IMG/VR virus record: IMGVR_UViG_3300028612_000777
Coordinates: 1-37,392 of that record
Source: a virus
Taxonomy: Duplodnaviria; Caudoviricetes
Direction: 5' to 3' (one strand)
Length of the DNA stretch: 37,392 nucleotides
The notes under the pieces are model-generated. The model was not told the DNA's origin, did no database searches, and saw nothing but the letters and a program-made list of their open reading frames with translations. Made by a program: the position numbers and the translations under genes. Below are positions 1 to 37,392 of the stretch, piece by piece. Numbering within the stretch: position 1 is the first letter of the stretch; each line of letters opens with the position of its first letter.

Positions 1-392
1 AGATGTAGATAAGACTGGAACAAGAATGGTGCAACTTACCGTATCACATGATAATAGCACAAAGGCTGAAATCAAAACCTATATGGACACGTATTCGATA
101 GAGTACAATTCAGGCGATACTAAACAAGACCTGATTGATAAGACAATGATTTGGCAACTTGATAACGGTATTCCAAGCGAAGAAGAATCATATGAGTACA
201 CAGAAAGCGTAGTAGATACCACTACTACCATTACTCCCACATGGAAAGAAAGTGCCTTCAAGGGCAAATTAGGCGCACCCAGAGTCAAACCTGACGGCAG
301 TCTGGTAATTGTAAAGGGTGAGTTCAGTATGCTGACAGGAGAATTATCGGCTATGAAAGATTTAGGGAATGACATGGATTATCCCAACAATT
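1..392. repeat. Terminal direct repeat / circular overlap, copy 1
   Basis: 1-392 matches 37001-37392 except at offsets 115, 124, 207, 298, 334 and 373, implying a 37,000-bp circular unit. Confidence 0.97.
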
Positions 393-9361: not shown

Positions 9362-9760
9362 ATGCGGCTAACTTCAAAACAGATCAGGTTCGCTGAACTT
9401 TACACCGGGAACGGCACGGCAGCGGCTATTGAATCCGGATACTCAAAGAAATCAGCATCAGCCCAGGCAACTCAGCTGCTTAAAAACCCGCTGATCATTG
9501 AAGCGATCCAGGAACACGAATCTGTGCGGACAGAAAAACGCATTGCGACCCGGGAGCAACGGCAGGTGTTCTGGACAACGATCATGTTAGATGATGGCAA
9601 GCACATGAAAGATCGCTTGAGGGCATCGGAATTGCTCGGCAAATCCAATGGAGATTTCATGGACAGGGTAAGCATTGACATTCCTGGCTTAATTATAAGG
9701 ATGCCGGAACTTGTTCCTGTGGGAACACCGGTTGCCTACGAAACACCGGGGGAGGCATGA
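9362..9760 (+). CDS. terS: Terminase small subunit
   Basis: LTSKQIRFAELY..NGTAAAIESGYSKKSA...LLKNP and DRLRASELLGK; precedes TerL. Confidence 0.93.
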   Translation: MRLTSKQIRFAELYTGNGTAAAIESGYSKKSASAQATQLLKNPLIIEAIQEHESVRTEKRIATREQRQVFWTTIMLDDGKHMKDRLRASELLGKSNGDFMDRVSIDIPGLIIRMPELVPVGTPVAYETPGEA

Positions 9761-11211
9761 ATTGGTTACTAACGATTGTTGTGGTAAGTGTCATGTATGA
9801 TGTTCAGCCCCAGGTGGCAGAAGATTCATCTATTGAGCAGTGGATACCTCATGCGGGCAAACAGACGGAAATACTTAAACGCAGAGAGTTCGAGTGTCTA
9901 TTTGGCGGATCACGTGGCGGCGGCAAAACAGATGCTGGATTAGTCTGGCTGGTAGCACCGGAATATTACAAACATCCCAAGTACAAAGGCTTGGTGGTGC
10001 GGCGCAATGCAGATGACCTGTCTGACTGGATCGCCAGAGCCAGAGCCTTTTATCATCCGTTAGGGGCTACATTTGCCGGTAAAACTCCGATCATTAAGCT
10101 GCCGGCGGGTGGATTCATCAAAACAGGTCATTTGAAGGATGAAAATGCCTACACCAAGTACCAGGGGCATGAGTACCAGAAGATTCTCATTGAAGAACTC
10201 ACTCAAATACCCAGGGAAGAAGATTATTTGAAACTGATCTCATCATGCAGATCAACAGTCCCGGAGTTAAAGCCACAGATATTATCGACCACAAACCCTG
10301 GCGGTGCGGGTCATGTGTGGGTTAAGCAGCGGTTTGTGGATGTAGCCAAAGATAAAACGCATTACGACAAGGTCTCCGGCAGATCAAGAATATTTATTCC
10401 AGCCCGGATCGAAGATAACCCAACCTTGATGGACAACGATCCCGGGTATGTTAAATTCCTGGAGTCGCTGCCCAATGATTTAAGAAAAGCCTGGCGGGAT
10501 GGTGATTGGGATATCTTTGCCGGACAGTATTTCAAGAAGCTGCGGAAGTCCATTCACCTGTGCGAACCGTTTGTAATTCCCAGATCATGGACAAAGTTCA
10601 GATCGTTGGACTGGGGATACGGTCACAACACGGTCTGCTTGTGGTGGGCTGTGGATCACAATTCACCCTCCAATGCGTATATATACCGCCGGTACATCCA
10701 GAATGAGACAGTTGTAAGCGAAATGGCGCAGAACATACTGGATATGACCCCGAAGAATGAACAGATACAGACGACAGCATCCGATCCGGCAATATGGGTG
10801 AAGAATCCCTACTCGGAAGCACCGACGGATAAAACGATGGCAGATGTGATCAGGACGGTAGGATTACACATTGAAAAAGCCAATAACAACCGTATTAACG
10901 GCTGGCAAGCCTTGCGGGAACTGTTAGAGTGGAGCGATGAGAAGCCAAGCCCCAGGCTACATATATTTGAAACCTGCGAGGATGTGTTTGATGGGTTGAG
11001 CGTATTAGTCCACAATGAGAAAAAGCCGGAAGATGTTTTAAAGGTGGGCGGGGACGACATTGGTGATTGTGCAAGGTATGGGGCAATGCACCTGTATGCT
11101 GCATTAGCACCGGAGAAAGATAAGTCGAAGGAAGATAAATTTATAGAATCAATAGTAACAGATCAGATATTTGCCGGTGAACCGGATAACTCAACATGGG
11201 ATAATGTCTAA
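9757..11211 (+). CDS. terL: Terminase large subunit
   Basis: Walker A GGSRGGGKT, Walker B ILIEELTQ, coupling motif TTNPGG, nuclease motifs SLDWG and DDIGDCARY. Confidence 0.96.
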   Translation: MNWLLTIVVVSVMYDVQPQVAEDSSIEQWIPHAGKQTEILKRREFECLFGGSRGGGKTDAGLVWLVAPEYYKHPKYKGLVVRRNADDLSDWIARARAFYHPLGATFAGKTPIIKLPAGGFIKTGHLKDENAYTKYQGHEYQKILIEELTQIPREEDYLKLISSCRSTVPELKPQILSTTNPGGAGHVWVKQRFVDVAKDKTHYDKVSGRSRIFIPARIEDNPTLMDNDPGYVKFLESLPNDLRKAWRDGDWDIFAGQYFKKLRKSIHLCEPFVIPRSWTKFRSLDWGYGHNTVCLWWAVDHNSPSNAYIYRRYIQNETVVSEMAQNILDMTPKNEQIQTTASDPAIWVKNPYSEAPTDKTMADVIRTVGLHIEKANNNRINGWQALRELLEWSDEKPSPRLHIFETCEDVFDGLSVLVHNEKKPEDVLKVGGDDIGDCARYGAMHLYAALAPEKDKSKEDKFIESIVTDQIFAGEPDNSTWDNV

Positions 11212-12944
11212 TGAGATCAAATGTATCAACCACATTGGATTACGACGAACACACTCTGGAAGCCATAGCGGATAGTGCCGATCAGATTTCCCGGGTTAAG
11301 AAATGGTTTGAAGAATCGAAGAAAGCCAGGGAATCACAGTCAGAGCGGTGGCGAAAGAATGAAAAGCTGTATTACGGACAGCACTGGGTGGAGACGCAAA
11401 AGGATTCCAGGACAAAGCTGGTGTATAATTTCCCCTTGAGCGTTGTGGAAACAACTATGCCGATCATTGCGGATCATTTACCTACGGTGGATATTATGCC
11501 GAAGGAACAGGACGACGTTATGTTTGCGGATATGGTACAATCACGGTTCGATCAGCTTGCAGACCAGTCAGGCTTATATGACAAGATATTATTAACCGTT
11601 AAGGATTCGCTGATATATTCAAACGGATACCTGGAGGTATTGCCTGAATTGGACGAAAATGGCAGTCTGACCGGCATATCGGTCAATGTGCCTGACCCAT
11701 ATACGGTATTCCCCCATTATTTCGCTACAACGATGGAAAACGCCAATTATATCATCTTTGCAACACCCATGCACGTAAACGAGATTGAGCAGCAGTATGA
11801 CGTGCAAGTCACACCGGAAGGCAATTTAGACGATTACCGATCTTTTCAAACGGCGGTAGATGATGAGACCAGGGAAGGGGACGATATGGCACTGGTTATA
11901 GAGTGTTTTAGCTATGACCCGGACAGGGAGACGTATCCGAACGGACGGTTTACAGCGATTGCCCGAGAGCAGCTGCTGATCGATGAGCCATTAGAGTTGT
12001 CACGGATTCCTTATTTTATGGTGGGAAACTACAAGTCAGCCCATACCTGGTACGGTATTGGTGAGCCGGATTTAGTGCGAACACAGACCAAGACGTTAAA
12101 CGAGGTTATGAGTTCTATTGCAGATAATATTCGGGAAGCAGGAAACCCCATACGCAAAATGACTCCGAGATTTGTCGCAAAAAACCCATTAGGGATTAAC
12201 CCTCATGCCGGGGGGAAGGTAGTGGTAGACGATCCAAAAGATTTAACGTGGGACGCTCCGCCATCCATACCGGGGTACGTCCAAAACTATATTCAACAGA
12301 CCTCTGTAATGATGGATGCTGTTACCGGTGTCCATGACGTTACCCAGGGCAGACAGCCCACAGGCGTTACAGCTGCATCAGCGATTGCAGCATTGCAGGA
12401 AGCAGCCCAGACACGCATCCGGTATAAGATTACCAAAGAGATCAGTACGATGATTAAAGATGTGGGGAATTATGTGGTTGATTTGATCCAGACGTATGAC
12501 GATCAGATATTGTCGTTAAGAGAAAGATATTCCGGCGGAGACTTTGAGTTTAAAGAATTTAATCCCCAGGCGGTAGATGAAAAGACCGGAAAAACCTTTT
12601 CAGAAGGTCAGTTCGACATAACAGTGGCAACAGGTTTCAGGCAGCCATCCGGACGTTTAGCTGCGGAGGAAAGAGCGTTGAAACTCTATGAACTGGGTGT
12701 CTATGGTGTTGAGGATATTGTTATGGCACTAAATGAGCCGAATAAACAGGATTTAATAGAAAGATTTTATAAGCGGCAGCAGGAAGCGCAGATGCAGCAG
12801 CAGGGCGGAGAACAGATACCGCCGGAAGTGATAGAGCAGTTTCAGCAGCTTGTGGAGATTGCGCAGCCGGGAACGCCGGAAGAAGAACAGTTAAGGGAAA
12901 TGATGGAGCAGTATCCAGAACTACAGGAGATCATCCAGGCGTGA
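11211..12944 (+). CDS. Portal protein (podovirus-like)
   Basis: 577 aa after TerL; YYG.HW, VYN, TGVHDVTQG...TAASAIAALQEAA, Gln-rich C-terminus. Confidence 0.88.
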   Translation: MRSNVSTTLDYDEHTLEAIADSADQISRVKKWFEESKKARESQSERWRKNEKLYYGQHWVETQKDSRTKLVYNFPLSVVETTMPIIADHLPTVDIMPKEQDDVMFADMVQSRFDQLADQSGLYDKILLTVKDSLIYSNGYLEVLPELDENGSLTGISVNVPDPYTVFPHYFATTMENANYIIFATPMHVNEIEQQYDVQVTPEGNLDDYRSFQTAVDDETREGDDMALVIECFSYDPDRETYPNGRFTAIAREQLLIDEPLELSRIPYFMVGNYKSAHTWYGIGEPDLVRTQTKTLNEVMSSIADNIREAGNPIRKMTPRFVAKNPLGINPHAGGKVVVDDPKDLTWDAPPSIPGYVQNYIQQTSVMMDAVTGVHDVTQGRQPTGVTAASAIAALQEAAQTRIRYKITKEISTMIKDVGNYVVDLIQTYDDQILSLRERYSGGDFEFKEFNPQAVDEKTGKTFSEGQFDITVATGFRQPSGRLAAEERALKLYELGVYGVEDIVMALNEPNKQDLIERFYKRQQEAQMQQQGGEQIPPEVIEQFQQLVEIAQPGTPEEEQLREMMEQYPELQEIIQA

Positions 12945-13084
12945 TTCAACGAATTATTATCTACTTAAAAAAATTACATACAGTTAGATCAATACCGGAT
13001 GATTTTACCGGTAAGATTCTAATAAACTGCCAATTAGGCTATGTTAATAATATCGTGATATCGGAGAGTATTAAAATAGCCTGA
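12941..13084 (+). CDS. 47-aa YezD/DUF2292-like small protein (not in ORF track), candidate antitermination factor
   Basis: GTGA overlap with the portal stop and AGGAG upstream; MIQRIIIYLKKLHTVRSIPDDFTGKILINCQLGYVNNIVISESIKIA (helix, FTG, beta-hairpin pattern); family assignment from recall only. Confidence 0.65.
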   Translation: MIQRIIIYLKKLHTVRSIPDDFTGKILINCQLGYVNNIVISESIKIA

Positions 13085-13118
13085 ATTAGACCCAGATTTG
13101 ATTAAACCGACCTAAAAC

Positions 13119-13188
13119 CCGGGGAAATCGGAAAAACCGAAGCCCTGGACACTCTTTTCAAAGCGAGAGGAGCGTTCAGGGCTTTTTT
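13119..13188 (+). terminator. Intrinsic terminator with overlapping alternative (antiterminator) hairpin, copy 1
   Basis: Terminator AAGCCCTGGAC 13140-13150 pairs with GTTCAGGGCTT 13174-13184, then a T run; competing stem CCGGGG/CCCTGG encloses TCGG-AAAAA-CCGA. Confidence 0.8.
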
Positions 13189-13242
13189 AATGTCAATAAC
13201 CAGTGTCAATCACATGATTGACCAACTGAAATGAGGACACAC

Positions 13243-14037
13243 ATGATAGCAGCAGAAAATGTATCATACGAAAGCGTAGAAGTCTCGGACTCTGACCTTG
13301 AGGGTATAGAGCAACCCAGTGAGCCATCTACTGAAAACAAACCGGTAGAAGCAAATACCGGTGACGAAAGCGATAACGACGATAACGACGCACCAGCAAC
13401 GGTCATGGTTGGAGATCAGGAGTATACTGTTGATGAAATCAATGATGCTTTTGATTCCCATAAAAACAAGACTGACTGGAATAAAACCAATACGGAAAAG
13501 GCGCAAAAGATCGCAGACCAGCGCAAGAGTGTAGAGCCGATGGTTCAAATGGTGAAGATGTTCAATAATAACAAGGATTTCACTGAATTATTGATGGATT
13601 CCATAGAAGATGAGTTAGGGGAGGAGGGGAAAAGCCTTTTCGAGAACGTATTAAAGGCTGATCCCGGAGTAAACCCTTACAAGTCTCAGCTGGAAGAAGT
13701 ACAGCATGATAGAGACATAATGCAGGCGGATGCAACTTTAAACAAAGCGAAGTCCGAACTGAAAAGCAAATTCAAGCTGAAAGATAATAAAGTGAACGAT
13801 GTTGTTGATTTTGCAGTAAAAACTCACGAAGAAACCGGCAGGCTTATATCTTTAGAGGAAGCCTATAAGGTACTCGATTATGACACCTTAAAAGCAAAAT
13901 CAGAGAAGAATAAACCTAAACCTCCGCAGCTGGCAAACAAAGATCGTGGTGCAGCCGCTATCCATACGTCCGATAAAAAGGCAGGGACGGCTAACTACGA
14001 TGATGTTGATATAAGTGGATTCAACCTGTTTGGTTGA
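13243..14037 (+). CDS. Capsid scaffolding protein (putative)
   Basis: Acidic disordered N-terminus, DWNKTNTEKAQKIA helix, LEEAY near the C-terminus; lies between portal and capsid. Confidence 0.78.
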   Translation: MIAAENVSYESVEVSDSDLEGIEQPSEPSTENKPVEANTGDESDNDDNDAPATVMVGDQEYTVDEINDAFDSHKNKTDWNKTNTEKAQKIADQRKSVEPMVQMVKMFNNNKDFTELLMDSIEDELGEEGKSLFENVLKADPGVNPYKSQLEEVQHDRDIMQADATLNKAKSELKSKFKLKDNKVNDVVDFAVKTHEETGRLISLEEAYKVLDYDTLKAKSEKNKPKPPQLANKDRGAAAIHTSDKKAGTANYDDVDISGFNLFG

Positions 14038-14066: not shown

Positions 14067-15095
14067 ATGGCTTTAACTTATGATTCTTTAGAATCGTTGA
14101 TCGCAAGGAAATATATGCCTATTCTTGCTGACAATATCTTTGTCAAGAGTCACCCTCTGACAGCAATTTTAAAGAAAAAATCAAAAACATTCAGCGGGCG
14201 TGAAATTGGGCTGCCCCTGGAAGTAACGGATGCAGACAGCACTAACAATGTTGTATGGGGATCGCCGGGTGCAGCATTAACCCCGACGGTATCAGACCCA
14301 TTCACACTGGCATTGTATACCCCGCAGATGCTGACCGGAACTTTGAAGATCAACAAAGAGGAGTTCCTCATAATGAATACACCGGAAGCGGTGAAAAACA
14401 TTGTGTCCTCCAAAGTGAAGAACCTTCAAAAAACCCTGGAAAAGGCTTTTGCTGATGCCATGTGGACGACAACCACAAGCGCATGGAACGCATTAACGGT
14501 TCTATTGAACGACACCAACAGCACGGCAGTAGGCGGTATTACACCAACAGCTACCTTGAATACGTGGTGGAAAACATCGATGGTAGATGCAGAAACTATC
14601 CGGCAAACAACGGCGACTGCCGTAACGGAGAGTGATCTGTATGATGCAGACTCCGGAACGTATATTCCCAGGATGTTAGCCCGGGGCGTTGCCAATGCCA
14701 AGAAGCAGACCGGCGAAACACCCGATTTGATTGTGGTAACTCAATACCTGTGGGACGTGATGGAGGATATTCTCGATCAGAAAAAAGCGGGTAATAAGTT
14801 CCATGATACAATGGGCGCAGCCGGGTTCAAAGCACTTGACTTCCGGGGCGTTGCTGTGATTGCTGATGCAGATTTACCTTTATCAGGTAATAAGGCAAGT
14901 ATGTACTTCATTAATTCGGATTATCTGTATATGTTCTTCAATTCCGGTGCGAAATTTACCGCCGGGAAATTCATTGAGAGCGATACGGCTAATACGCACT
15001 CCATGAAGGTTCATACCTACGGAAACCTGGTTACATCTAACAGAAACGCACATTGTGTTATTGAAAATGTGTATTCTGACAGCAGTTACGTCTAA
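14067..15095 (+). CDS. Major capsid protein
   Basis: 342 aa after the scaffold, strong AAGGAG RBS; DNIF..HPL, PDLIV, FRGVAVIAD, MYFINSDY, YGNL...NR. Confidence 0.88.
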   Translation: MALTYDSLESLIARKYMPILADNIFVKSHPLTAILKKKSKTFSGREIGLPLEVTDADSTNNVVWGSPGAALTPTVSDPFTLALYTPQMLTGTLKINKEEFLIMNTPEAVKNIVSSKVKNLQKTLEKAFADAMWTTTTSAWNALTVLLNDTNSTAVGGITPTATLNTWWKTSMVDAETIRQTTATAVTESDLYDADSGTYIPRMLARGVANAKKQTGETPDLIVVTQYLWDVMEDILDQKKAGNKFHDTMGAAGFKALDFRGVAVIADADLPLSGNKASMYFINSDYLYMFFNSGAKFTAGKFIESDTANTHSMKVHTYGNLVTSNRNAHCVIENVYSDSSYV

Positions 15096-16013: not shown

Positions 16014-19000
16014 ATGGCGAAACGTATAGATATACGAAGTTTTGAAGGTGTGATCACCAATGCCGATCAGGAAGATTTACGTCCGGAAGTTTTAACAGCC
16101 TTAAAAAATTTACGCCCGGTAAACGGTAAGCTGGTTAAAACATTCGGGGCAGGGGAGTTTACAGATATCCCTGCACCGGTGATTGATGTTATGTCTGCAA
16201 AACTCGGTGAAACGTATACGGTTCGCAATGTGTTTGTGTTTAATTCTGTCTATTTATCAACCACAGAAGCCCATCAGCACCGGTATATCGTTGTAGCAAC
16301 CGACGACACCAGTAAGAATACACGGATTCTATGGTGGGACTATGATGTCCCCGCTGTATCCAACTGCTTGGTCTTTACCGATAATACGCTGTTCTTCTCT
16401 ACCTCCGCAGCCCATAAAATTGATGAAGATGATTATGTAATGATCCAGGATGTGAAAAATAACGATGGTGCAGCTATCACCGGCTGTGAGATTTTTGATC
16501 AGGCAGGAAGTCAGTCAGATGCCGATACAGTCTATATAAATTCACCTTCCGGGTTTGGCGGGACGTGGATGGACGATCGCGGTGAGTTAGATGTGGAAAT
16601 CATATCAGCAAAGCCATCAATGGGCGGGAAGTTGTCTCGTCATTTGCAATTTAACACTATAACGGTTGGATCAGACCAGATGACTAAAGTAGGGCATATA
16701 GCCATCGTGGAAGTGAATGGCGGATCAGCCGTCGTAACCCTTGCTGCAATAGCAAAATTTACAGAAGGCTTTTATAGGCTGTACTATTCTACAGATGGTA
16801 CGAATTTTACAGCCCTGGCAACATCGGAATGGAGCGGAATCATAAGCTCAGGCATTAATATTAATATCCACCAAATAAGAGCCTTTAATAATTCTTTTTA
16901 TGTAGCGGTTGAGCATTATAAAGACCCAACAAATTATACAAGCATAGTGAAGGTAACGCCGACATGGAGCGCATCGGTTGTAACCTGGGCGGATACAAAC
17001 CCTATACAACTCGCACAGCAATTATCAGCGTGTCAGATGGTGGATTATACCCAGGGCGGAAGCAATTATTTGATGATTTTATTTAATGATGGTACTGCCG
17101 GGCATTTATACCGTCTCGACACCAGCGATACACCCACTAACTATACATCTGGTCTGCCGTCCTCTGATAAAGCACTGTATCTGTGTATGGGTCTTGATTC
17201 TCCCGGTAAGGAAAATTTCTTCATTTCGTGGGCTTGGGCAGGCACAGTATATATTTACTATTGTAGAATTACCCATCTTGGCAATACAAATCCCTGGACA
17301 TTAATTAGTGACGGTATTATTGATAGTGCTGAAAATGTTATTGCTATGGACGGATATAAGCACCAGGACGATAAAACGGCTATCGTATGTCTGGAAGATA
17401 CCTCAGCAAATACCCATAAAGTATATACGATAAAAGATGATGGCGGCTTTGAATTGACATTATTAAATATCGCAATACCGACAGATTCGCAAACTGACGG
17501 CAAAGTAATAAGAATGTATGGGACTCATGCCACACCAGGCGGAAATGAATATCTCTATATCTCATACGATACATATAACGATGGCACGCAGCATGGAGGC
17601 ACTGTATATATAATAGCCGAAAGCGGAACACACGCACAAGTAACCGAATGTGATGCCGGGGCGGATTTAAAGGGAAAATCTATAGTGTCGTTTGGAGATG
17701 TATCAACAGTCTTTAGTATGACCTATGCTAAAGCACACATGGTTTTATACGGTGCGTTTGTACAGGGGACAGGAGTCACGGCAGAGGAAACAACTGTATT
17801 CCGCCATAGCGACGTGGGCTGGGCTACCGGAACATGGAGCGGAAACGGATCGCTAAAGTACAACTGGCGGGATTTGTTGGGTTTCTTTGACATATCAGGA
17901 GATTTTAAACAGGAAAATAACCGTAATCCGATTGTTCCGATGGGCGATTCTATCCGGTTTCTTCCTGGTGTAATATCTGACGGTGACGAATTATGGGTCG
18001 GGCATATAGACCGCGAATTGCTGGGCGGGAATGTCACCTATGCTGACGACTTTTATGGTCTTATTAATGCGATTACAAATCCGTTTAAAATTAACGGACA
18101 CGATATATCCCTCACAGAGAATGAAGTGAGAGCAGAGGAAGGTGTCAAATATGCTGTAACAGCTATCTATGACGGAATCCAGGAGTCGCTAATTGATGAT
18201 GATGATGTGCATAAACTGAATATATCAGCAAACATAAAAAAATCCATTGTTGATTTGACGATTAAGATTAATACAAACAATATTAACAAGAGGATTACCG
18301 GTATTAATGTATACAGATCGTCTATGCTGTCTACGCAAACATTCGGAAGTTTTTCCTTAATTCAGACAGTTAATCTATTGGATAGCTATACAGACTTAAC
18401 ACCTTTGAATGGGAATATTCATGCACTAAAGGACGACAAATTTTGGATTGTAGATAAAAATAATGCGTTAATAAAAAGTGGATTAATTGCTGGTAATTTA
18501 GCAAAAATAAAAATTACAGGAGCATATCATGGCGCACGTAAAAGGATAGAATACGACGAGGCTAATGCTCATCCAATCATTAAGCCTGTCTGGTATGACT
18601 CCGGGGCGACTCTATCGTCCAATCCCAGCTCATCAACCTCAATAGATGTGTCAGATGGGACTAAATTCAGCACAGGGCAGCTTATCCATGTCACAGGGTC
18701 TGTTATGGTAAACGAGGCTTACGTTAATGGTTATTATTATAACACCAAAGACGGCTCTTATGACGAGATAATGGAAATTACCTATATTGTTTCAAATACT
18801 CTGACAGTGGTAAGGGGTTATGAAGGATCAACAACATACACATCCTATTCTACCAGTGATTATATTTATATTTATAGCGGTATCTCATACATAAATATTT
18901 TAGGGACTTCAGGAGCGAATATATTTAATGCAGGCTGGGCGTTTGATCATAACGTTTCCGGGTCAACTATAATAGAAACCGATACAACCGGTGCGTTCGG

Positions 19001-20333
19001 GGCAGGATATACAGGGATTTTAGAGCCTTTAGATACAGACGATTGGGTAACGAGCGGATCAGTAGACATCTCTTTGGCAAACAACAGAACTTTCTACGGA
19101 GTCCTCTCAACAGATGAAACGCAAGAAGAAGTGAATATTGTCAATGCTGTAAGCAATTATGATACTAAACTTGGATTTGGTTTTGTAAATATGAAAAATA
19201 AGATTATGGCTGATAAGATCACTTTAGAAGGTGTTTTTAGAGGGAGTGCCTCATTTGAAGATTTAGGCGGCGGTGTATATAATGTTACAATCAATGATAA
19301 CGGACTCCCGGCAGGCGCATATCACTATAACGAGGGTGAGGACAGCATTAATACGTCCGGGAAATTCGGTAAAGTGTTTAAAGGGCGGATGTTTTTATTC
19401 AATTTACGCCTGGATATCGGCGATGAAAACGAAGAACACCGGGATTGGCTGTCTTATTCTGAATTAGAGCAGTTTGATGTTCGATCTGTCAGCAATGTGA
19501 TTGGATTCCCGGATAAAGAAGGCGGAGAAGGGACAGGCATGGCTGAACTGTTCGGCAGGCTGCTGCTGTTTAAGCCTCAAGCTATCTTTACCCTGGATGT
19601 GGTAGACCCGACCGATCCCGCAACATGGAGACGGAGGGAAAGTAAGCATAATATCGGTAATATTGCTCCGCAAGGCGTTGTAGAAGCGATTGATTCGGTA
19701 TATTTTGTATTCCGGGATGGTATTTATCGATTAGACCCAAATTTTGCCGCTGCTGCGGATGCAACGCCATCCAAGCTGAACCGCATTACTGAGCCGATCA
19801 GGGATATCTTCGACGGCATAGACGATAAAACGATTATTAAGGGAGCGTATGATCAGAATTTAAACGAAGTGGTTTATAAATGGGTCAGAAGTTCATCACA
19901 GGAAGTCTGGGCGTATAATGTCCATGATCAAGCCTGGAGGCAGTTGGATACAGCCGGGGCGGTAGATATGTATTTCCATAATGAAGATAATTACCTGAAT
20001 TATTATGACGAAACAGCAAAAAAAATACACACATTCAATAATACAGAAAGTTCCACAGCCAGCTTTAAAACAATGAGATTCCCGGTAGGAATGGATAGAA
20101 AAACTAAAATACGCCATGCGGCATTTCAATACGATGGACAGGATACCATAACGGTAAATGTCTACGTCAATGGCGAAACAACCCCATCTACAACACATAC
20201 GCTAACCGGGACAGGTCGGCAGATTAGGAAAATACCTCTGAAACGGTATGCAAATTCCGTCCAGTTAGAAATAGAATCAGCCGCATCAACAAACACTTTA
20301 GAATTTGAAAGACTACAATTAGAAACGGAGTAG
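16014..20333 (+). CDS. Tail nozzle / stabilisation-type structural protein with large beta-rich insertions (putative)
   Basis: 1439 aa; FEGVITNAD...LKNLR N-terminus, propeller-like C-terminus (GRLLLFK, IGNIAP, VYFVFRDGIY, WAYN); follows the adaptor. Confidence 0.65.
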   Translation: MAKRIDIRSFEGVITNADQEDLRPEVLTALKNLRPVNGKLVKTFGAGEFTDIPAPVIDVMSAKLGETYTVRNVFVFNSVYLSTTEAHQHRYIVVATDDTSKNTRILWWDYDVPAVSNCLVFTDNTLFFSTSAAHKIDEDDYVMIQDVKNNDGAAITGCEIFDQAGSQSDADTVYINSPSGFGGTWMDDRGELDVEIISAKPSMGGKLSRHLQFNTITVGSDQMTKVGHIAIVEVNGGSAVVTLAAIAKFTEGFYRLYYSTDGTNFTALATSEWSGIISSGININIHQIRAFNNSFYVAVEHYKDPTNYTSIVKVTPTWSASVVTWADTNPIQLAQQLSACQMVDYTQGGSNYLMILFNDGTAGHLYRLDTSDTPTNYTSGLPSSDKALYLCMGLDSPGKENFFISWAWAGTVYIYYCRITHLGNTNPWTLISDGIIDSAENVIAMDGYKHQDDKTAIVCLEDTSANTHKVYTIKDDGGFELTLLNIAIPTDSQTDGKVIRMYGTHATPGGNEYLYISYDTYNDGTQHGGTVYIIAESGTHAQVTECDAGADLKGKSIVSFGDVSTVFSMTYAKAHMVLYGAFVQGTGVTAEETTVFRHSDVGWATGTWSGNGSLKYNWRDLLGFFDISGDFKQENNRNPIVPMGDSIRFLPGVISDGDELWVGHIDRELLGGNVTYADDFYGLINAITNPFKINGHDISLTENEVRAEEGVKYAVTAIYDGIQESLIDDDDVHKLNISANIKKSIVDLTIKINTNNINKRITGINVYRSSMLSTQTFGSFSLIQTVNLLDSYTDLTPLNGNIHALKDDKFWIVDKNNALIKSGLIAGNLAKIKITGAYHGARKRIEYDEANAHPIIKPVWYDSGATLSSNPSSSTSIDVSDGTKFSTGQLIHVTGSVMVNEAYVNGYYYNTKDGSYDEIMEITYIVSNTLTVVRGYEGSTTYTSYSTSDYIYIYSGISYINILGTSGANIFNAGWAFDHNVSGSTIIETDTTGAFGAGYTGILEPLDTDDWVTSGSVDISLANNRTFYGVLSTDETQEEVNIVNAVSNYDTKLGFGFVNMKNKIMADKITLEGVFRGSASFEDLGGGVYNVTINDNGLPAGAYHYNEGEDSINTSGKFGKVFKGRMFLFNLRLDIGDENEEHRDWLSYSELEQFDVRSVSNVIGFPDKEGGEGTGMAELFGRLLLFKPQAIFTLDVVDPTDPATWRRRESKHNIGNIAPQGVVEAIDSVYFVFRDGIYRLDPNFAAAADATPSKLNRITEPIRDIFDGIDDKTIIKGAYDQNLNEVVYKWVRSSSQEVWAYNVHDQAWRQLDTAGAVDMYFHNEDNYLNYYDETAKKIHTFNNTESSTASFKTMRFPVGMDRKTKIRHAAFQYDGQDTITVNVYVNGETTPSTTHTLTGTGRQIRKIPLKRYANSVQLEIESAASTNTLEFERLQLETE

Positions 20334-21083: not shown

Positions 21084-22163
21084 ATGGGTAATATTCGAGA
21101 TTATTTAGACAAAAAGATTGAACCTCGCAAAATGTCGGACAATGATCGTGCCATCGCCAGGCATTATTCACAAGCATTTCTTGCAGACAGTCCATTTACC
21201 GGTGATTATGCGGGGACAGCTATTGCCGTTAGAGATTCGCTTGCCGTATCTAAATACGACCCAAATGCAACACCTGCAATCGCAAAGGTAAATAAGAATA
21301 AAAAGACCGAAAAAGACTATATTCAAGCATATATAAACGCCAAAGGGACATACCAGTTTAATCCTGATTCAGTCTCCGCAGATCAAGCAAGTGATTATAA
21401 ATTTAAAAACCGGATGATTGTAAAAACGAATGAAGAATTAAAAGCAAAAGCGGAAAAGCAGTTTAAAGAAAAATATCCAGTTCCTTTGGAAGAAATACTT
21501 GAAAAAATTAATAAGGATGCAAAAGCATACGTAAAATTTCTTCAAGAGACAGGTGTGCGGAGCGCAGCGGAAATACAGCACGCCGCAAAAGTGTTTATGA
21601 GTCAAAGCATGGAAAAGGAGGGGTTAGACCCGGCGGGGTATATACGGTTAGATGAGCCGGACAGACCGAACACACCACACGTTGAATCAGAAGACGAAGA
21701 TTTAGAAGATGTAAAAATAATACCACAGTCAGTTATGCAGCCAATTAAGATAGATGAGCCGTCCCCTGTCCCGGTTAAAAAGAGGGAACAGGAATATGCA
21801 AAAGAGACGCTTGCTATGAAAGTCGCAAATCCTCCTCCAGAATCCAAAAAAATTGGCAAAAAATTAGAGGCTAAATATCAAGAACTAACTAATAAATATA
21901 AAAACAATAGATACATTGAGGTTAAAAAGACCTACAATAATAATACGAACAGATGGGAACTCAAATTAAAAACTGATGTTGAGGGCGAATTGAAAAGGCA
22001 ACTTGGAATATATATATTGCCAGGCGGTGAAAAGATAGACATATCGCATATTAAAGAGGATTCAAATCGCAATCCAGATGAAAAAGAAGCATTATATCAA
22101 AGCAAAATAGTAAAATATGTTGGTGAATACATTCAAAATGATTTAAACAATCCTGGCAAGTAA
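21084..22163 (+). CDS. Putative internal virion / ejection protein
   Basis: 359 aa, charged and helical, coupled to the giant ORF by TAATG. Confidence 0.5.
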   Translation: MGNIRDYLDKKIEPRKMSDNDRAIARHYSQAFLADSPFTGDYAGTAIAVRDSLAVSKYDPNATPAIAKVNKNKKTEKDYIQAYINAKGTYQFNPDSVSADQASDYKFKNRMIVKTNEELKAKAEKQFKEKYPVPLEEILEKINKDAKAYVKFLQETGVRSAAEIQHAAKVFMSQSMEKEGLDPAGYIRLDEPDRPNTPHVESEDEDLEDVKIIPQSVMQPIKIDEPSPVPVKKREQEYAKETLAMKVANPPPESKKIGKKLEAKYQELTNKYKNNRYIEVKKTYNNNTNRWELKLKTDVEGELKRQLGIYILPGGEKIDISHIKEDSNRNPDEKEALYQSKIVKYVGEYIQNDLNNPGK

Positions 22164-31156: not shown

Positions 31157-31179
31157 AACCGTACATATTAATTGACTTA

Positions 31180-31247
31180 CAGAGTCAATCTTAAAATTAG
31201 ACGCTCTGCATAATCCAACAGGTTGGGGTTGGTAGGGCTTTTTTTTT
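31180..31247 (+). terminator. Intrinsic terminator with overlapping alternative hairpin, copy 2
   Basis: GCTCTGC 31203-31209 pairs with GTAGGGC 31232-31238, followed by 9 T; competing stem CAGAG/CTCTG encloses TCTT-AAAAT-TAGA. Confidence 0.78.
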
Positions 31248-31267: not shown

Positions 31268-31525
31268 ATGTCCGCAATACCTATCGTAAAAGGGTTAGGA
31301 TCGGCAAATAAAGCCGTTAGTATAACAGACAATGAAACCACTCACGTTAAATGTCGTGCAATATATGTAGGCACAGACGACAGCTATGATTTTTATATAA
31401 ACGGTGTTTGGGTAAAGTTTAAAAATGCCAATGAGGGTTCGATCTATCCTGTTAGAGCAACAGGGGCAAGAATATCTGCTGGTGGCGTTGCACCAAGCAC
31501 TGGCGACATAGTGTTTTTGAACTAA
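31268..31525 (+). CDS. Small beta-rich tail / spike-base-like protein (putative)
   Basis: AGGAG RBS before ATG 31268; CRAIYVG...F.NA..GSIYPVRA pattern; coupled to the LamG gene. Confidence 0.65.
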   Translation: MSAIPIVKGLGSANKAVSITDNETTHVKCRAIYVGTDDSYDFYINGVWVKFKNANEGSIYPVRATGARISAGGVAPSTGDIVFLN

Positions 31526-33951
31526 TGCTTGGATTAGGCACTTCTCTAACCAGGGGAGGAAAAGTAGTTCGTACCTACGTCAAGGACGGTCTCAAACTCT
31601 ATATGCCCTACAAAGGCTCTGACGCTTCCGAAGTAAAATTCGTAGGCACAGGCTCTACCAGTTTTGATGGTAGTAATGATTATGTGGATACAAACTCAAC
31701 ATTTCAATCTACCTTTCAAGGTTCATTTACAATTAGTGCATGGATAAAGCCCACTGATGGTAATCCTTCAGGAGATGAAATATATATTGGTACAAACAAT
31801 GCCGATGATACAGATGCTATGTATCTCTATGTTAGAGATGGAGGAGAATTAGGGTTTTATTATAAAACAAATAATAATAGTGATTTAACTTTAACAAATA
31901 GTGCATTGTTCACTGATGGACAGCAAGATTGGTGTCATGTATGTGCAGTTGTTGATGATACTTTAAATCAGGTAAGTCTTTATTTTAATGGAGTTTCACA
32001 AACATTAAGTGTTAGTTATGATGGTGATATTTCATCAATAACTAACTCTGATTTTCAGTCAAGTGGAACTACTCCTAATTTATTTATTGGGGCTTATTCT
32101 GATAATGGAACATCATCAATGGAGTACAAAGGCTCTATCAAGAACGTATCTATTTGGAGTAGGTGTTTAACCGCCACAGAAATTCAGAATGTAATGTATC
32201 GGTCATATGCAGAAGTAAGTGGCAGACTTGCAGATGGGCTTGTGAGCTGGTGGGCTTTGGATGCTACTGGGTTAGGCAGTGAACTTATTACTAATGGAAC
32301 ATTTGATGATGCAAGTACGACAGGATGGGAATTAGCATCAGAGGGTTCAGAGGTTGTTAATCTTTTTACAATTAGTGCATCTGGGAATGGATGTAATGTG
32401 TCAACTGATCCAAATGCTGACCACAAATATTTTGGGACAGCAGATGATGGGTCAGCTCAAGGTTATGGTTTTAGTATTATAAATGACAGAACTTATCAAA
32501 TATCTTTTGATTATACACAAAATAGTGGTATTTCTCCAAGAATAAGGATTAGAAAAAATAGTCTTGATGGGGGTAATATAGCGGATTTTGAAGTGGCTGA
32601 AGGAGCATATACAAATACTACTGTAGAAACAAAGACATCAACCTTTACTGCAGGTGATTATTCTGGAGGAACTCCTGCTAATATTGGCTATCTATCATTT
32701 GACCTTGGAGCAAGTACAGCTACAAATTTTACTATTGATAATGTAAGTCTTAAGGAAGTATTGGTTAAAGACCTAAAAGGTTCTAATGATGGTTCTATAT
32801 ATGGTGCAACAGTAGACGAAGACCTCTACGGTGGCGATACTCCAGTAATCCCAAGAGCCATAGACAATGCAAGAACAGTACAGGCAGATGCTATTGGTGC
32901 TGGGAGTGCTTATTTTGATACAAGCAATACTGACTATATAGATTGTGGGGTTATAGATTTTGATACTAATGATTTTTCTATGGTGGCTTGGTATAATGCA
33001 GATTCTTTAGTAGACTATTCAGGAATAGTAACTAATAGAGAAAGCTCTGGAACTTATATTGGTTCTCAAATTAGAGTTAGAGGTGCAGATATAGAATTAA
33101 TAACAGATTGTGGTGGTATCTCTTTTGAGACTAAAACAGTAGCATTTGTTCCTATTATAAATAGATGGACTCATGTAGCCGCAACAGTTGATAGAGATGG
33201 ATTGCAGAGTTTATATATTGATGGAACACTCCAAGCAACAACTGATATTTCTGGTCAATCATCTGTTGACTTAACTCATACAGATAGCTTGATGATTGGA
33301 AAATATATAGCAGATAATAGGTATTTTGATGGCAACATCTGTCAAGTTGGTATATGGAGCAAGGCACTCACCCAAGCACAAATCCAGAGTGTTATGGAAA
33401 AAACATACGAAGAATTGACTGCATCAGAGAAAACGAATTTAGTCTCATATTGGGCATTGGATGAAACGATAGAATCAAGTGGAACTGGTGCAAGTTTTGT
33501 ATATGATAAAGTAGATACTTCTTTGGGGAGTGAGTTATTAACTAATGGTGATTTTTCTGATACTACTTCTACCGATTCATCTTCAAGTGCATTAGCAGGA
33601 TGGACAAATGAATATACTCATAATTCTAATAGTAAGTTTACAATATCAGGTGGTGCTTGTACTCTGATTTCTGATGGTACTTCTACAAGCATGAAGCAGG
33701 CTATTCTTACTGTTGGGAAAGTCTATAAAGTAACTGTAAATATTACGGATGTTACTTCGGGTGGAATTAAAATTTATACAGGTAGTAGTACTTTACCGAC
33801 CAATATTACAACAACTGGAATACATACAATTTACAAAACTGCAGAAGATTCTGATTTGGAGGTATGGAGAAAATCAGGAGTGACAAGCAATGTTACTTTT
33901 GATGATATTGTTGTCAAAGAAGTCCAAGGCAATGTAGGACAACTAATCTAA
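31525..33951 (+). CDS. LamG / concanavalin-A-like repeat fibre protein with carbohydrate-binding-like modules
   Basis: Two LamG domains (FDGSNDYV, FTISAWIK, WCHV, LYFNG; SMVAWY, WTHVAAT, LYIDG, FDGNI) and two GSEL..NG modules. Confidence 0.85.
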   Translation: MLGLGTSLTRGGKVVRTYVKDGLKLYMPYKGSDASEVKFVGTGSTSFDGSNDYVDTNSTFQSTFQGSFTISAWIKPTDGNPSGDEIYIGTNNADDTDAMYLYVRDGGELGFYYKTNNNSDLTLTNSALFTDGQQDWCHVCAVVDDTLNQVSLYFNGVSQTLSVSYDGDISSITNSDFQSSGTTPNLFIGAYSDNGTSSMEYKGSIKNVSIWSRCLTATEIQNVMYRSYAEVSGRLADGLVSWWALDATGLGSELITNGTFDDASTTGWELASEGSEVVNLFTISASGNGCNVSTDPNADHKYFGTADDGSAQGYGFSIINDRTYQISFDYTQNSGISPRIRIRKNSLDGGNIADFEVAEGAYTNTTVETKTSTFTAGDYSGGTPANIGYLSFDLGASTATNFTIDNVSLKEVLVKDLKGSNDGSIYGATVDEDLYGGDTPVIPRAIDNARTVQADAIGAGSAYFDTSNTDYIDCGVIDFDTNDFSMVAWYNADSLVDYSGIVTNRESSGTYIGSQIRVRGADIELITDCGGISFETKTVAFVPIINRWTHVAATVDRDGLQSLYIDGTLQATTDISGQSSVDLTHTDSLMIGKYIADNRYFDGNICQVGIWSKALTQAQIQSVMEKTYEELTASEKTNLVSYWALDETIESSGTGASFVYDKVDTSLGSELLTNGDFSDTTSTDSSSSALAGWTNEYTHNSNSKFTISGGACTLISDGTSTSMKQAILTVGKVYKVTVNITDVTSGGIKIYTGSSTLPTNITTTGIHTIYKTAEDSDLEVWRKSGVTSNVTFDDIVVKEVQGNVGQLI

Positions 33952-36887
33952 TGGCTACCACAATAGCACTAACATCACAAGCTGGAACAAACGCACCTTA
34001 CAAGCTCGGCTCTCCTCCAGACTTCGGCGCTCTGTATAGTGGCAGGGCATTAGAGTTTGATGGGGTTACGGATTATGTTACTTCAGATATTATACAATTT
34101 CTTCCAATAACTTTTGCTTTTTGGATATATCCTGACGAATGGTCTGGTATACACGATGATAATGCAATTGTAATAGGATGGAGATACACTACATACGACC
34201 AGCATGGATGTTTTGTACAATTAACCAATGCTGGTCTTTTACAGGCAAGTTGCCATAATAATGCTACTACTTTTAAAAACGATTTAAACTATACATTAAC
34301 AAAGAATACATGGCAACATATAGCAGTAACATTTGATACTCAAGGAGTAACTGCTGGTCAAAATGACTCTACATCAATAATAGGAACAATATATGCTGAT
34401 GGAGTTCAAGTAGATACATTAACAGCTGGTGGGGGACTGATGTCTTCTGCTACTTTTGGAATTGGAAGTGTTACTGATGCTGCTGCTTATTTTCCTGGTA
34501 AACTATCCAACGTCCAAATCTGGGACAAGGCTTGGTCATTATCAGACGTACAATATGCCTACACACATCCAGAGAAACTAATCACAGACAATAGTTCTGT
34601 CACATCTGGCACTACCATATCCAACTTAAAGGCTTGGTATCCTTGCACAGAAGGTAATCCAAGAAGCCCACAGACTACTGTATATGATGGCTCTCCTAAA
34701 GGATTGGGGAGTGAGTTACTTGGTGACGGAGATTTTACATTAACAGGCACATTAGCAACTAATACAACTGGGACATATTGGAAAACAGATAGTTATGATT
34801 TCTGGTCAATTAGTGGAAGCCAAGCAATTCTTACAAATCCTAGTGGTTCTGGTGTTGAAATGGAAGAAATTTCTGGTGGTAGTATTGATGATACAATAAT
34901 TGCAGGAGCACTTTATAAAGTTGTTTTAGAGATTATATCGGTTACTGGTTCGGGAGACTTCAGAGCAAGAGTTGGGAATACAGGTGGTACTCTCCGAAGT
35001 GCAGTTGGTACATATACAGAATATATAGTTGCATCTAATACAGATGCTTTTACACTCTCATCTGGAGGAAATGATACTGTTGTAATTAAGGTTGATAATG
35101 TCTCCGTCAAATTAGTCAAAATGGGCAATCACGGTACAACTAAATTTTTTAATGAACTGGCTGAAGATAATGCTGCTGATGATGATACTGGAGATTGGAC
35201 AAAAGGAAGTGGGATGACTCTTGCTTTTTCTTCAGACCATTATACAGCAACAGCAACTGGTAATAATAAATATTTTTACTTAACAGCAGCTACAGCTGTT
35301 ACATCTGGGAGAACATATAAAATATCAATAGATATGAAAGACGGGACAGCATCAACCATATCTGGAGATATGGGGATTGTTGATGACGGTGTAAGTTTTG
35401 CTGGTTCTCCTACCCATACTTCATTTACAACAGGAGGCAGTTTTGCAACAAAAACTCATACTGTGGTAGCAGATGCAACAGAAAATGCACATATATATGT
35501 GGAAATAGATGGTTTGGCTGGTAGCAATATTCAACTTAAAAATTTCAAAATGGAAGAAGTAGGCGTAGCCACAGGCTGGACTACTGCTGATGCAGAGCCT
35601 TTAATCCCACAGACTGCTTTGATGGGGATGAGTAAGCCGATGGTGTTTAATGGGATTGATGATTCAGTAAGCTGTGGAACTGTATCAGAGATTACTGCAC
35701 CTACTGCTTCCTATTCGGTTTGGTTTAACGCAACTACTGTGGGTGCGGACGATGGGATATTATGTAATAATAATACAGGTAATGATAGGGTAGGTATGAT
35801 TTTTAGTGCGAATGGTAGATTACAATTTTCTGGGACTTCTGGAAGTAGTGGATATCATATATATTCAGATTCAGTAATAAGTACAGACACTTGGTATCAT
35901 GTTGTATATACAAGAAGTTTGTCTGGTAGCTATACAACAATAAAAATGTATGTAAATGGTGCATTACAAGCTGATACTGATACAAGCGAATATACCCAAA
36001 GCACATCTATTAATACTCTTTTTATTGGAAGATTATCAGGAACATCGGCATATCATTTTGAAGGTATTATAAATGAAGTTGCAATATTTACTGATGAACT
36101 TTCTCTTACACAAGTACAGGAATTATTCAATGATGGAGTTCCATTTGATTTAGACGGAAGTACATTAACAGGCAGTCCCACATTAACAAATTATTATAGA
36201 AATACAGGAACTGGTACTTGGTCAAATTTAAAGAATCCAGGAACTGATGATGGCACTCCTGCAGGTTCTCCAGCCACAATCCTCCTCCCAGAAGGCACTA
36301 CCTCTGGCAAAGATTTATTAGGCTTTCCTTTAACCCATCCCAATTCTGGGTGGCTGAATTTGAGTGGGAGTGAGTATGTGGAGATTGCTGATAATGATGT
36401 ACTTGATATAGAAAGTGCTGTTACACTTGAATGTTGGGCTAAATATACCAGTCCTCAAAATGGGTATGCACAACTAATGGCAAAAGGATATGATGGAGCA
36501 TATCAAATACATTCAAATGTAAGTGCATCTGCTGGATTGCCCAGATTTAGGTTGAGATTGTGGAACGGCTCAAGTTATGCAATGAGTGGGTCTGCACTGG
36601 CAACTACCAGATGTGATGATAATGAATGGCATCATATAGTTGGAACTTATTCGGAGGGAGGCGGTGCTGATAATGTGAATATCTATATCGATGGAGATTT
36701 AGAGACTACTTCAACAAGTACTGGCATTATAAATTCAAATACTGAACCATTTCATATTGGAAGAGATACATATTCAGGAGGTAGTTTCTTTGATGGTTCT
36801 ATAGATGAAGTAAAAATATACAACAGAGCATTATCAGAACCAGAAATTTTAAAAAATTATAAACATGGCAAATCAAAACATAGTTAA
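33951..36887 (+). CDS. LamG / concanavalin-A-like repeat fibre protein
   Basis: Three LamG domains (ALEFDGVTDYV; FNGIDD, WYHVV, FEGIINEV; WHHIVGTY, FDGSIDEVKIYNRALS) plus inserted beta modules. Confidence 0.87.
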   Translation: MATTIALTSQAGTNAPYKLGSPPDFGALYSGRALEFDGVTDYVTSDIIQFLPITFAFWIYPDEWSGIHDDNAIVIGWRYTTYDQHGCFVQLTNAGLLQASCHNNATTFKNDLNYTLTKNTWQHIAVTFDTQGVTAGQNDSTSIIGTIYADGVQVDTLTAGGGLMSSATFGIGSVTDAAAYFPGKLSNVQIWDKAWSLSDVQYAYTHPEKLITDNSSVTSGTTISNLKAWYPCTEGNPRSPQTTVYDGSPKGLGSELLGDGDFTLTGTLATNTTGTYWKTDSYDFWSISGSQAILTNPSGSGVEMEEISGGSIDDTIIAGALYKVVLEIISVTGSGDFRARVGNTGGTLRSAVGTYTEYIVASNTDAFTLSSGGNDTVVIKVDNVSVKLVKMGNHGTTKFFNELAEDNAADDDTGDWTKGSGMTLAFSSDHYTATATGNNKYFYLTAATAVTSGRTYKISIDMKDGTASTISGDMGIVDDGVSFAGSPTHTSFTTGGSFATKTHTVVADATENAHIYVEIDGLAGSNIQLKNFKMEEVGVATGWTTADAEPLIPQTALMGMSKPMVFNGIDDSVSCGTVSEITAPTASYSVWFNATTVGADDGILCNNNTGNDRVGMIFSANGRLQFSGTSGSSGYHIYSDSVISTDTWYHVVYTRSLSGSYTTIKMYVNGALQADTDTSEYTQSTSINTLFIGRLSGTSAYHFEGIINEVAIFTDELSLTQVQELFNDGVPFDLDGSTLTGSPTLTNYYRNTGTGTWSNLKNPGTDDGTPAGSPATILLPEGTTSGKDLLGFPLTHPNSGWLNLSGSEYVEIADNDVLDIESAVTLECWAKYTSPQNGYAQLMAKGYDGAYQIHSNVSASAGLPRFRLRLWNGSSYAMSGSALATTRCDDNEWHHIVGTYSEGGGADNVNIYIDGDLETTSTSTGIINSNTEPFHIGRDTYSGGSFFDGSIDEVKIYNRALSEPEILKNYKHGKSKHS

Positions 36888-36896
36888 GGAAAAATT

Positions 36897-37392
36897 ATGG
36901 CACATTACGAATTATACATCTGTCTGACAAAGGCAACTTATGAATCAGCAGTACCAAGCGTACTCCAGCCCAAATTAGGGTGGGATGAGTACACCTACAA
37001 AGATGTAGATAAGACTGGAACAAGAATGGTGCAACTTACCGTATCACATGATAATAGCACAAAGGCTGAAATCAAAACCTATATGGACACGTATTCGATA
37101 GAGTACAATTCAGGTGATACTAAGCAAGACCTGATTGATAAGACAATGATTTGGCAACTTGATAACGGTATTCCAAGCGAAGAAGAATCATATGAGTACA
37201 CAGAAAACGTAGTAGATACCACTACTACCATTACTCCCACATGGAAAGAAAGTGCCTTCAAGGGCAAATTAGGCGCACCCAGAGTCAAACCTGACGGTAG
37301 TCTGGTAATTGTAAAGGGTGAGTTCAGTATGCTTACAGGAGAATTATCGGCTATGAAAGATTTAGGGAATGATATGGATTATCCCAACAATT
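36897..37392 (+). CDS. 5' part of the origin-spanning hypothetical protein (ends at 457)
   Basis: AAGGA upstream of ATG 36897; MAHYELYICLTKATYESAVPS... stays open to the window end and is in frame with ORF 26..457. Confidence 0.8.
   Translation, partial: MAHYELYICLTKATYESAVPSVLQPKLGWDEYTYKDVDKTGTRMVQLTVSHDNSTKAEIKTYMDTYSIEYNSGDTKQDLIDKTMIWQLDNGIPSEEESYEYTENVVDTTTTITPTWKESAFKGKLGAPRVKPDGSLVIVKGEFSMLTGELSAMKDLGNDMDYPNN
37001..37392. repeat. Terminal direct repeat / circular overlap, copy 2
   Basis: Matches 1-392 with 6 substitutions. Confidence 0.97.

Follow-up and report, generated by a model that had tools for sequence, protein, structure and literature searches.

A small-protein gene and a covarying RNA hairpin that overlaps a predicted terminator form a conserved cassette in phage late operons

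The late genes of the phage genome analyzed here raise a simple question: how is transcription of the head genes carried past a strong predicted terminator that stands directly before them? The window, by which we mean the whole stretch of DNA analyzed, is a 37.4-kb record (37,392 nt; Duplodnaviria, Caudoviricetes; IMG/VR IMGVR_UViG_3300028612_000777) in which all genes from position 9362 onward lie on the + strand, in the order small terminase, large terminase, portal, a 47-aa ORF, an acidic putative scaffold, major capsid, and virion genes (Table 1). For the scaffold gene, which has no family match in Pfam or PHROGs, we infer the identity; a GAGG at 13233-13236 points to 13243 as its start. 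Further downstream, gene 16014-20333 (1,439 aa) has no family match, gene 22163-31123 (2,986 aa) has a single unnamed PHROG match and probably encodes an internal virion protein, and the two LamG-domain genes occupy 31525-33951 and 33951-36887. The ends of the window (1-392 and 37001-37392) repeat each other over 392 nt at 98.5% identity, with six mismatches; the record is classed as linear, and the window probably represents a complete genome that is circularly permuted and was put together from a mixed population. A relative of the capsid protein at 43% is named from a Marinimicrobia genome, and a related portal (26%) occurs with the same RNA motif at a locus in a genome sampled from the phylum of that Marinimicrobia record.

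Table 1. Positions of the late-gene features discussed in the text (window numbering).
Feature	Position	Strand	Evidence and remarks
Portal protein gene	11211..12944	+	Pfam SU10_portal 3.8e-14; PHROG 156 portal 1.8e-38; stop overlaps small ORF start (GTGA)
47-aa small protein, candidate antiterminator	12941..13084	+	GTG start overlaps portal TGA; unnamed family, distant kin of DUF2292/YezD
Element 1 fold A, antiterminator-like hairpin	13119..13148	+	Folding, covariation, CM
Element 1 predicted intrinsic terminator	13139..13188	+	Base is the 3' strand of fold A
Conserved hairpin CAG-T-GTC-loop-GAC-CAA-CTG	13201..13228	+	Directly before scaffold ribosome-binding site
Acidic putative scaffold gene	13231..14037, likely start 13243	+	First gene after element 1; in relatives, located between portal and capsid
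Major capsid protein gene	14067..15095	+	PHROG 9953 major head protein 2.4e-28
Element 2 fold A, no adjacent small ORF	31180..31208	+	CAGAG / TCAA / TCT..AGA / CG / CTCTG; CM match
Element 2 predicted intrinsic terminator, U9	31203..31247	+	Overlaps fold A; between 2,986-aa gene and LamG-domain genes
Genes behind element 2: 85-aa ORF and two LamG-domain virion structural genes	31268..36887	+	Pfam Laminin_G_3; PHROG 8510 virion structural protein

A first-pass annotation of this region had proposed that a small ORF coupled to the portal gene is followed by two mutually exclusive RNA folds, the second of them a strong intrinsic terminator, and our analysis agrees with it on each point. The ORF lies where it was placed, its start overlapping the portal stop codon. 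The terminator hairpin (13139-13185, with a U6 run at 13183-13188) has a predicted energy of -31.3 kcal/mol (z -6.5), equaled by none of 200 shuffles; its stem has bulges, and a simple terminator scan did not list it. Upstream, 13110-13155 takes fold A as its MFE structure (-15.1 kcal/mol, z -3.2), an energy matched by 1 of 200 shuffles. Positions 13139-13148 are common to both structures, and in step-wise prefix folding fold A is kept until about 13176-13180, when the terminator takes over. The pairing drawn for fold A fared less well: the hairpin is real, but of the 6-bp outer stem with a 3-nt loop originally proposed (-13.6 kcal/mol), relatives conserve only three outer pairs (GGG/CCC) together with a 4-nt 5' loop. 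In this conserved register (-8.6 kcal/mol) GGG at 13121-13123 is followed by the loop GAAA at 13124-13127, an inner stem TCGG..CCGA (13128-13131/13137-13140), AG, and CCC at 13143-13145; the GAAA of the window departs from the consensus 5' loop, A(C/U)(A/G)(A/C).

An independent promoter at 13190-13240 had been named as the other way in which capsid expression might be explained. In a scan covering sigma-70-like sites, the only one behind the terminator (13218-13247, 9/12) overlaps the likely scaffold start codon and is for that reason unusable as a scaffold promoter, so that the scaffold gene is without a usable promoter of this type at 13190-13240. The scan found 13 promoter-like sites, compared with 17.3 in shuffles.

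A separate hairpin lies between the terminator and the scaffold gene. Its GTC..GACCAA core is found in 59 of 63 related intervals, whether the cassette described below is present or absent, and its outer pairs covary, being changed on both sides, next to a CAA bulge. It has no Rfam match. We consider it a candidate translational operator for scaffold autoregulation, for which phage P22 provides a precedent.

The 47-aa product had been likened to DUF2292/YezD. For the window protein taken alone this likeness is not seen: scans of Pfam, NCBIfam, and PHROGs gave no credible match, DUF2292 (PF10055; Pfam cut-off 22 bits) did not match it at E <= 1 or anything in the genome at E <= 10, the single sequence aligned with YezD by hhalign at 0.3%, and a single-sequence homologue search recovered only the protein itself. 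The likeness does hold at the family level. Homologues were first located through gene order, in the gap that separates the portal and scaffold genes of capsid relatives, and profile searches then gave 24 proteins and, from a seed profile that included the window protein, 422 clusters at E <= 1e-3. This large unnamed family, in which the closest relative of the window protein (P0246) is 62% identical to it, shares a helix followed by the pattern F-T-G-x-I-x-I-N-F-x-x-G-G-I-x-N-I-N-x-x-E-S-x-K, with N29, G24, G33, E42, and K45 among the conserved residues; in the window protein a helix is predicted at residues 2-15 and strands at 24-29 and 34-40 (model pLDDT 75). For a set of 142 members DUF2292 ranks first among Pfam families, with nine matches at E <= 0.5 (best 3.8e-6), and the OscA model has two weak matches (best 0.064). 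Aligned by hhalign with a six-sequence YezD alignment, the family profile scores 88% probability (E 3e-6, 44 columns), with both glycines aligned. Since the matches are those of the family profile and the window protein falls below the Pfam threshold, the family is, at profile level, a distant relative of DUF2292/YezD, and the window protein is no member by the curated cut-off.

The pN/pS ratio is 0.19 for 22 related marine CDS, a value drawn from non-independent pairs. The family has no arginine-rich stretch. An ESM Atlas search returned unnamed clusters only (scores <= 0.81), neither a PDB sequence search nor tblastn with one family protein against plasmids and cultured phages returned a match, and fold searches with the monomer model were uninformative (best Z 3.3, best E 1.0). 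Only one of nine loci from a peptide-pattern scan of genome contigs is real, the remainder being chance hits. The profile search of two phylum samples found the family in 3 of 301 genomes of one and gave a single doubtful match, inside a long ORF, in the other (301).

The gene and the RNA come and go together. Capsid relatives provided 63 distinct portal-scaffold intervals. Of these, 18 carry the ORF, fold A, and a strong terminator, 45 carry neither ORF nor fold A, and none is mixed. Six of the 45 have some other hairpin with a U run, one of which (L132) is intergenic and terminator-like; a terminator before the scaffold gene is thus apparently passable by other means as well. The two states alternate among near-identical capsids (in a quick tree used for alternation only), near relatives gaining and losing a cassette of about 230 nt. 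In 31 cassette-less contigs, three of them at least 90% complete, the ORF was found nowhere (0/31) and neither was the RNA (0/31), which was recovered from all four cassette-bearing contigs used as a positive control. Several cassette-less relatives have only 18-21 nt between portal and scaffold, which indicates that the two genes are normally on one transcript, that no promoter is needed between them, and that an inserted terminator must be passed.

The co-occurrence of RNA and protein homologues proposed as a check in the first-pass annotation is also seen from the RNA side: in a set selected on RNA only, a family ORF lies no more than 400 nt upstream of 46 of the 74 distinct elements, compared with 0 of 74 in each of two control regions, and 28 have no adjacent ORF. 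The spacing from ORF to element ranges from -1 to 258 nt (<= 30 nt in 37 of the 46, 79-258 nt in the other nine). One complete genome (G826, locus L253) carries the ORF, but neither the descriptor nor the CM detects an element there. All of these counts are non-independent, as many of the loci are from related marine phages. Loci L211 and L212, from the unpublished genomes G344 and G446, are not relied on for any conclusion. The ORF, fold A, and the predicted terminator that overlaps it belong to a single conserved regulatory cassette. The portal-scaffold interval is also a hot spot for small accessory genes in relatives (L006, L015, L022, L051, L010), namely lysine-rich ORFs of 30-45 aa with the pattern MP.LK.K..K.Y.KKG..AY.KAL and a 160-aa ORF of no known family; these frequently precede the cassette.

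In the RNA motif an outer stem of 3 bp encloses, in this order, a loop of 4 nt, an inner stem (3-5 bp) with an apical loop that varies, and an AG; the 3' strand of the outer stem also serves as the base of the terminator. With a relaxed descriptor, a hairpin and overlapping terminator were found behind 45 of 51 ORFs selected on protein similarity, compared with 34 of 255 shuffles; by eye, 35 of the 45 are canonical (23 from one marine clade), eight variant, and two doubtful. Scanning viral contigs for the RNA only, with the outer stem and two inner pairs fixed and the rest free, yielded 98 loci. In their 57 distinct cores the free inner pairs 3 and 4 are paired in 51 and 42 cases, respectively, using all four Watson-Crick types, and none of 10,000 permutations reached as high an inner-pair covariation. 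Fold A therefore covaries among homologues, as the first-pass annotation had supposed it should. In a 42-row alignment 98.6% of cells are paired, a figure to which the fixed pairs contribute circularly; none of 500 shuffles, which ignore relatedness, did as well, and slid controls reached at most 62%. The outer stem is changed on both sides in L243 (TAGG/CCTA) and in a second element of the window (CAGAG/CTCTG), and the overlap of fold A with the terminator is kept in all canonical copies. An Rfam scan of window positions 12800-13400 gave a best score of 18 bits, with all scores far below cut-offs, and a search of sequencing runs listed no holder of the RNA.

Some RNA subtypes have protein subtypes of their own. 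Elements with an AGAG/CTCT outer stem (L217, L220, L239, L267) go with FC[LM]GG proteins, and those with ACGG/CCGT and a long inner stem (L174, L191, L266) with FNQGG proteins. Variant elements with a long extra stem in the apical loop (L208, i.e., G124:C50, and L232, L258, L228) go with an F/M-S-Q-G-G subtype; L208 looks chromosomal rather than phage. The match may reflect cognate pairs or plain relatedness.

Elements without an adjacent ORF bear on whether the protein might act at a distance. We took 27 such loci and searched 26 contigs. Fourteen encode a family protein elsewhere, in every case (14/14) upstream on the same strand, at distances of 0.3 to 17.7 kb. In the other 12 no ORF was found; most are fragments, and one is a complete genome (G764) with a weak element only. 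One phage (G760) combines a single ORF with four elements that are distributed over its head operon, every one with a terminator, and two others (G773 and G775) have two elements each.

The window itself holds a second copy, which had not been included in the first reading. Element 2 is intergenic, about 18 kb downstream of element 1, with compensatory changes in its outer stem. Among CM matches in the window it ranks second (15.5 bits, E 0.12), its pairing was read by eye, and in the family register its fold A has -4.2 kcal/mol and a UCAA loop that is off the consensus; its terminator has -15.4 kcal/mol, with 2 of 200 shuffles as good. It is weaker than element 1, and weak by itself. The motif is carried by 2 of 24 loose terminator candidates in the window, namely elements 1 and 2. 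A strict genome-wide descriptor gives exactly two matches in the window and none in six cassette-less contigs; it is specific rather than sensitive, as it misses known true elements (e.g., G813-G816). With a looser descriptor, 2 of 97 terminator candidates in those six contigs are flagged. An extra 8-bp hairpin at 31171-31189 competes with the 5' arm of element 2 fold A and coexists with the terminator, making it a possible anti-antiterminator.

The fold covaries, it overlaps the terminator, and one gene may have several such sites. Our best reading of these sequence patterns, with a probability of roughly 0.7, is that the small protein is a trans-acting, RAT-like antiterminator forming a feed-forward switch for late genes. 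The head genes would be cotranscribed with the portal gene, and by default most transcripts would end at 13188 and 31247. The small protein, translationally coupled to portal, would build up from the short transcripts, recognize the conserved internal loop (4 nt facing AG), and hold the three-pair outer stem of nascent fold A, thereby sequestering the terminator base and allowing read-through at its own site and at the distant second one. Its action would be local, with one site per terminator as at the RAT of BglG/SacY, and not processive like that of lambda N or Q. Since every site is downstream of the gene, such a circuit would impose a threshold or delay: weak or early transcription would yield no capsid or fiber proteins, and strong late transcription would lead to read-through. 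The protein has no sensory domain, which weighs against reading the cassette as a switch, above all at L174 and L191, where the ORF has its own promoter-like sequence and precedes a putative head-protease gene. Also counting against the reading are the 12 contigs with an element and no ORF, the complete genome with an ORF and no element (G826), the hairpin of L132, the weakness of element 2, the off-consensus 5' loops of the window, and the YezD loci described below that show no element or no evident terminator.

Several other readings share part of this evidence. Fold A might be a loading site from which the protein modifies RNA polymerase in the manner of lambda N at nut, possibly with host Nus factors, or the protein might bind polymerase while a host factor reads the RNA. 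The small size of the protein would suit this, as would the upstream, same-strand position of the gene in 14 of 14 distant cases, which is expected of a factor working best in cis. Such a factor, if processive, would have no need of the separate overlapping copy that each terminator has (four in G760), the apical loop is variable and not boxB-like GNRA, and the family is without an arginine-rich motif; we regard polymerase modification as unlikely. Somewhat less likely still is that fold A is a riboswitch aptamer or a host-protein site, e.g., for CsrA at GGA, with the small protein serving another role in the cassette. Here the 28 of 74 elements without an adjacent ORF count in favor, as do conserved loop bases that could bind any ligand and an AGGGA that resembles the CsrA motif. 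However, all 45 intervals that have lost the ORF have lost the RNA as well, 31 contigs have neither, and the GG is paired and replaced with compensation, the GGA being gone, in L243 and in element 2.

A similarly low probability attaches to the idea that binding of the protein to fold A stabilizes the short RNA upstream, leads to its processing, or holds down synthesis of the protein itself, with the capsid genes expressed through leak or from an unrecognized phage promoter. The promoter scan leaves room for sites of other than the sigma-70 type, L132 has its terminator-like hairpin without a cassette, and some hairpins behind YezD genes are without a terminator. Against this, the overlap is kept in all canonical copies, and because fold A and the terminator are mutually exclusive, any binding that stabilizes fold A opposes termination. 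We find leader-peptide attenuation, in which translation of the ORF rather than its product would set the fold, very improbable: 37 of 46 adjacent ORFs do end within 30 nt of the element, but nine end 79-258 nt away and others kilobases away, some ORFs have several sites, and the ORF is under purifying selection with a folded sequence pattern in place of regulatory codon runs. Just as improbable is a DNA-binding activator for which the inverted repeat would be the operator and which would switch on a promoter located past the terminator. Lambdoid and P2-like phages do use small late activators, and the inner stem is a short palindrome; yet what that stem conserves is pairing rather than sequence, with all four pair types in use, an asymmetric 4x2 loop and the terminator overlap fit an RNA, and no sigma-70-like promoter fits behind the terminator. 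Antitermination at the hairpin remains the reading that we prefer.

The kinship with YezD may extend to gene context in some bacteria. An Rfam scan of 20 related loci detected a SAM riboswitch in L269 only, a Bacillus mycoides locus with the order SAM riboswitch, yezD, hairpin and terminator, cysH, which suggests the same device behind another input. The full layout of gene, internal-loop hairpin, and overlapping terminator, which is an observation of this analysis and not a feature taken from publications, is present in two Bacillaceae loci (L269 and L270) of the six YezD loci used; two have a hairpin without an evident terminator (L213 and L214), and in two, among four YezD genes from a plasmid collection, none was seen (L271 and L272). 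In the gammaproteobacterial L213 and L214 the YezD gene is followed by short motifs that recur and by a CUGACCGG-loop-CCGGA hairpin, a little way ahead of a porin-like gene. It has been reported, in the parts of the papers available, that oscA is of unknown function and cotranscribed with a downstream sulfate-binding gene (PMC3596284 and PMC2996968, citing Viti 2009) and that yezD is up in deep starvation, its deletion having no effect on viability (PMC6385201); the available part of PMC7921472 contains expression data only. In the open-access literature on DUF2292, YezD, oscA, PA0284, and phage antitermination we found no published description of the system, which has no Rfam match either, and no mechanism in print for YezD or OscA. 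Eight supplementary files of PMC8040213 are without DUF2292 or YezD, and PMC9120772 has no whole-word match.

The cassette is real, conserved, and apparently undescribed, and is probably a variant of protein-dependent attenuation. We would give even odds to a broader proposal, that the YezD/OscA-like proteins and the phage family make up one widespread, undescribed superfamily of RNA-binding antiterminators of ~45 residues, each with a cognate internal-loop hairpin, used as plug-in feed-forward amplifiers at late-operon terminators in phages and, behind promoters or riboswitches, at sulfur genes in bacteria. If the antiterminator reading is true, a large unnamed phage family would acquire a function, and DUF2292/YezD/OscA, as its kin, one that can be tested; phage late genes would have a compact RAT-like control distinct both from N/Q and from activators; and a ~45-residue protein with a 25-nt RNA, available in natural sequence variants, would be a small part for synthetic transcription circuits.

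Compared with known systems, the closest by protein is DUF2292/YezD/OscA (PF10055, NF033785), with which the family shares profile similarity and, in L269 and L270, the arrangement of gene, internal-loop hairpin with a 3' AG, and terminator. It differs in that the window protein matches neither model, in its motif (FTG-x-I-x-I-N-F-x-x-GG compared with YG-x-V-x-I-x-[VI]-H/Q-DG in YezD), and in the 5' loop, which has 4 nt in the phage family and 3 nt in YezD. Leader-peptide attenuators have a fixed short spacing to one ORF and regulatory codons, features not found here, where the spacing is -1 to 258 nt, or up to 17.7 kb, with several sites per ORF. HutP and the ANTAR proteins (AmiR, EutV) are trans-acting proteins that oppose an intrinsic terminator; what they sense is a ligand or phosphorylation, the RNA motifs they bind are different, and at E <= 1 the small protein matches none of these families in Pfam. 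With lambda N/nut, Q/qut, and AlpA the proposed system would share phage-encoded antitermination gating an operon. Lambda N/Q and AlpA are processive and act through polymerase, whereas here each terminator has its own overlapping site; the hallmarks of lambda N/nut (an arginine-rich motif, a boxB GNRA-type loop, and a single site acting on many terminators) were not found in the family or its elements. The nearest parallel in mechanism would be BglG, SacY, LicT, and NagY. At RAT sites, according to the part of PMC12502629 available, SacY/BglG/NagY stabilize a hairpin and so block the base of the terminator. To that extent the likeness includes a protein-stabilized hairpin overlapping the 5' arm of the terminator (here predicted folds and covariation), a gene within the transcript it regulates, and several target sites. 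The differences are that the small-protein family has no CAT or PRD domain match in Pfam and consists of stand-alone proteins of 42-60 aa with a predicted alpha-beta-beta fold and no sensory domain, that the RNA motif is another one, that the gene here lies upstream of the site, and that the genes controlled would be those of phage heads and fibers instead of sugar operons.
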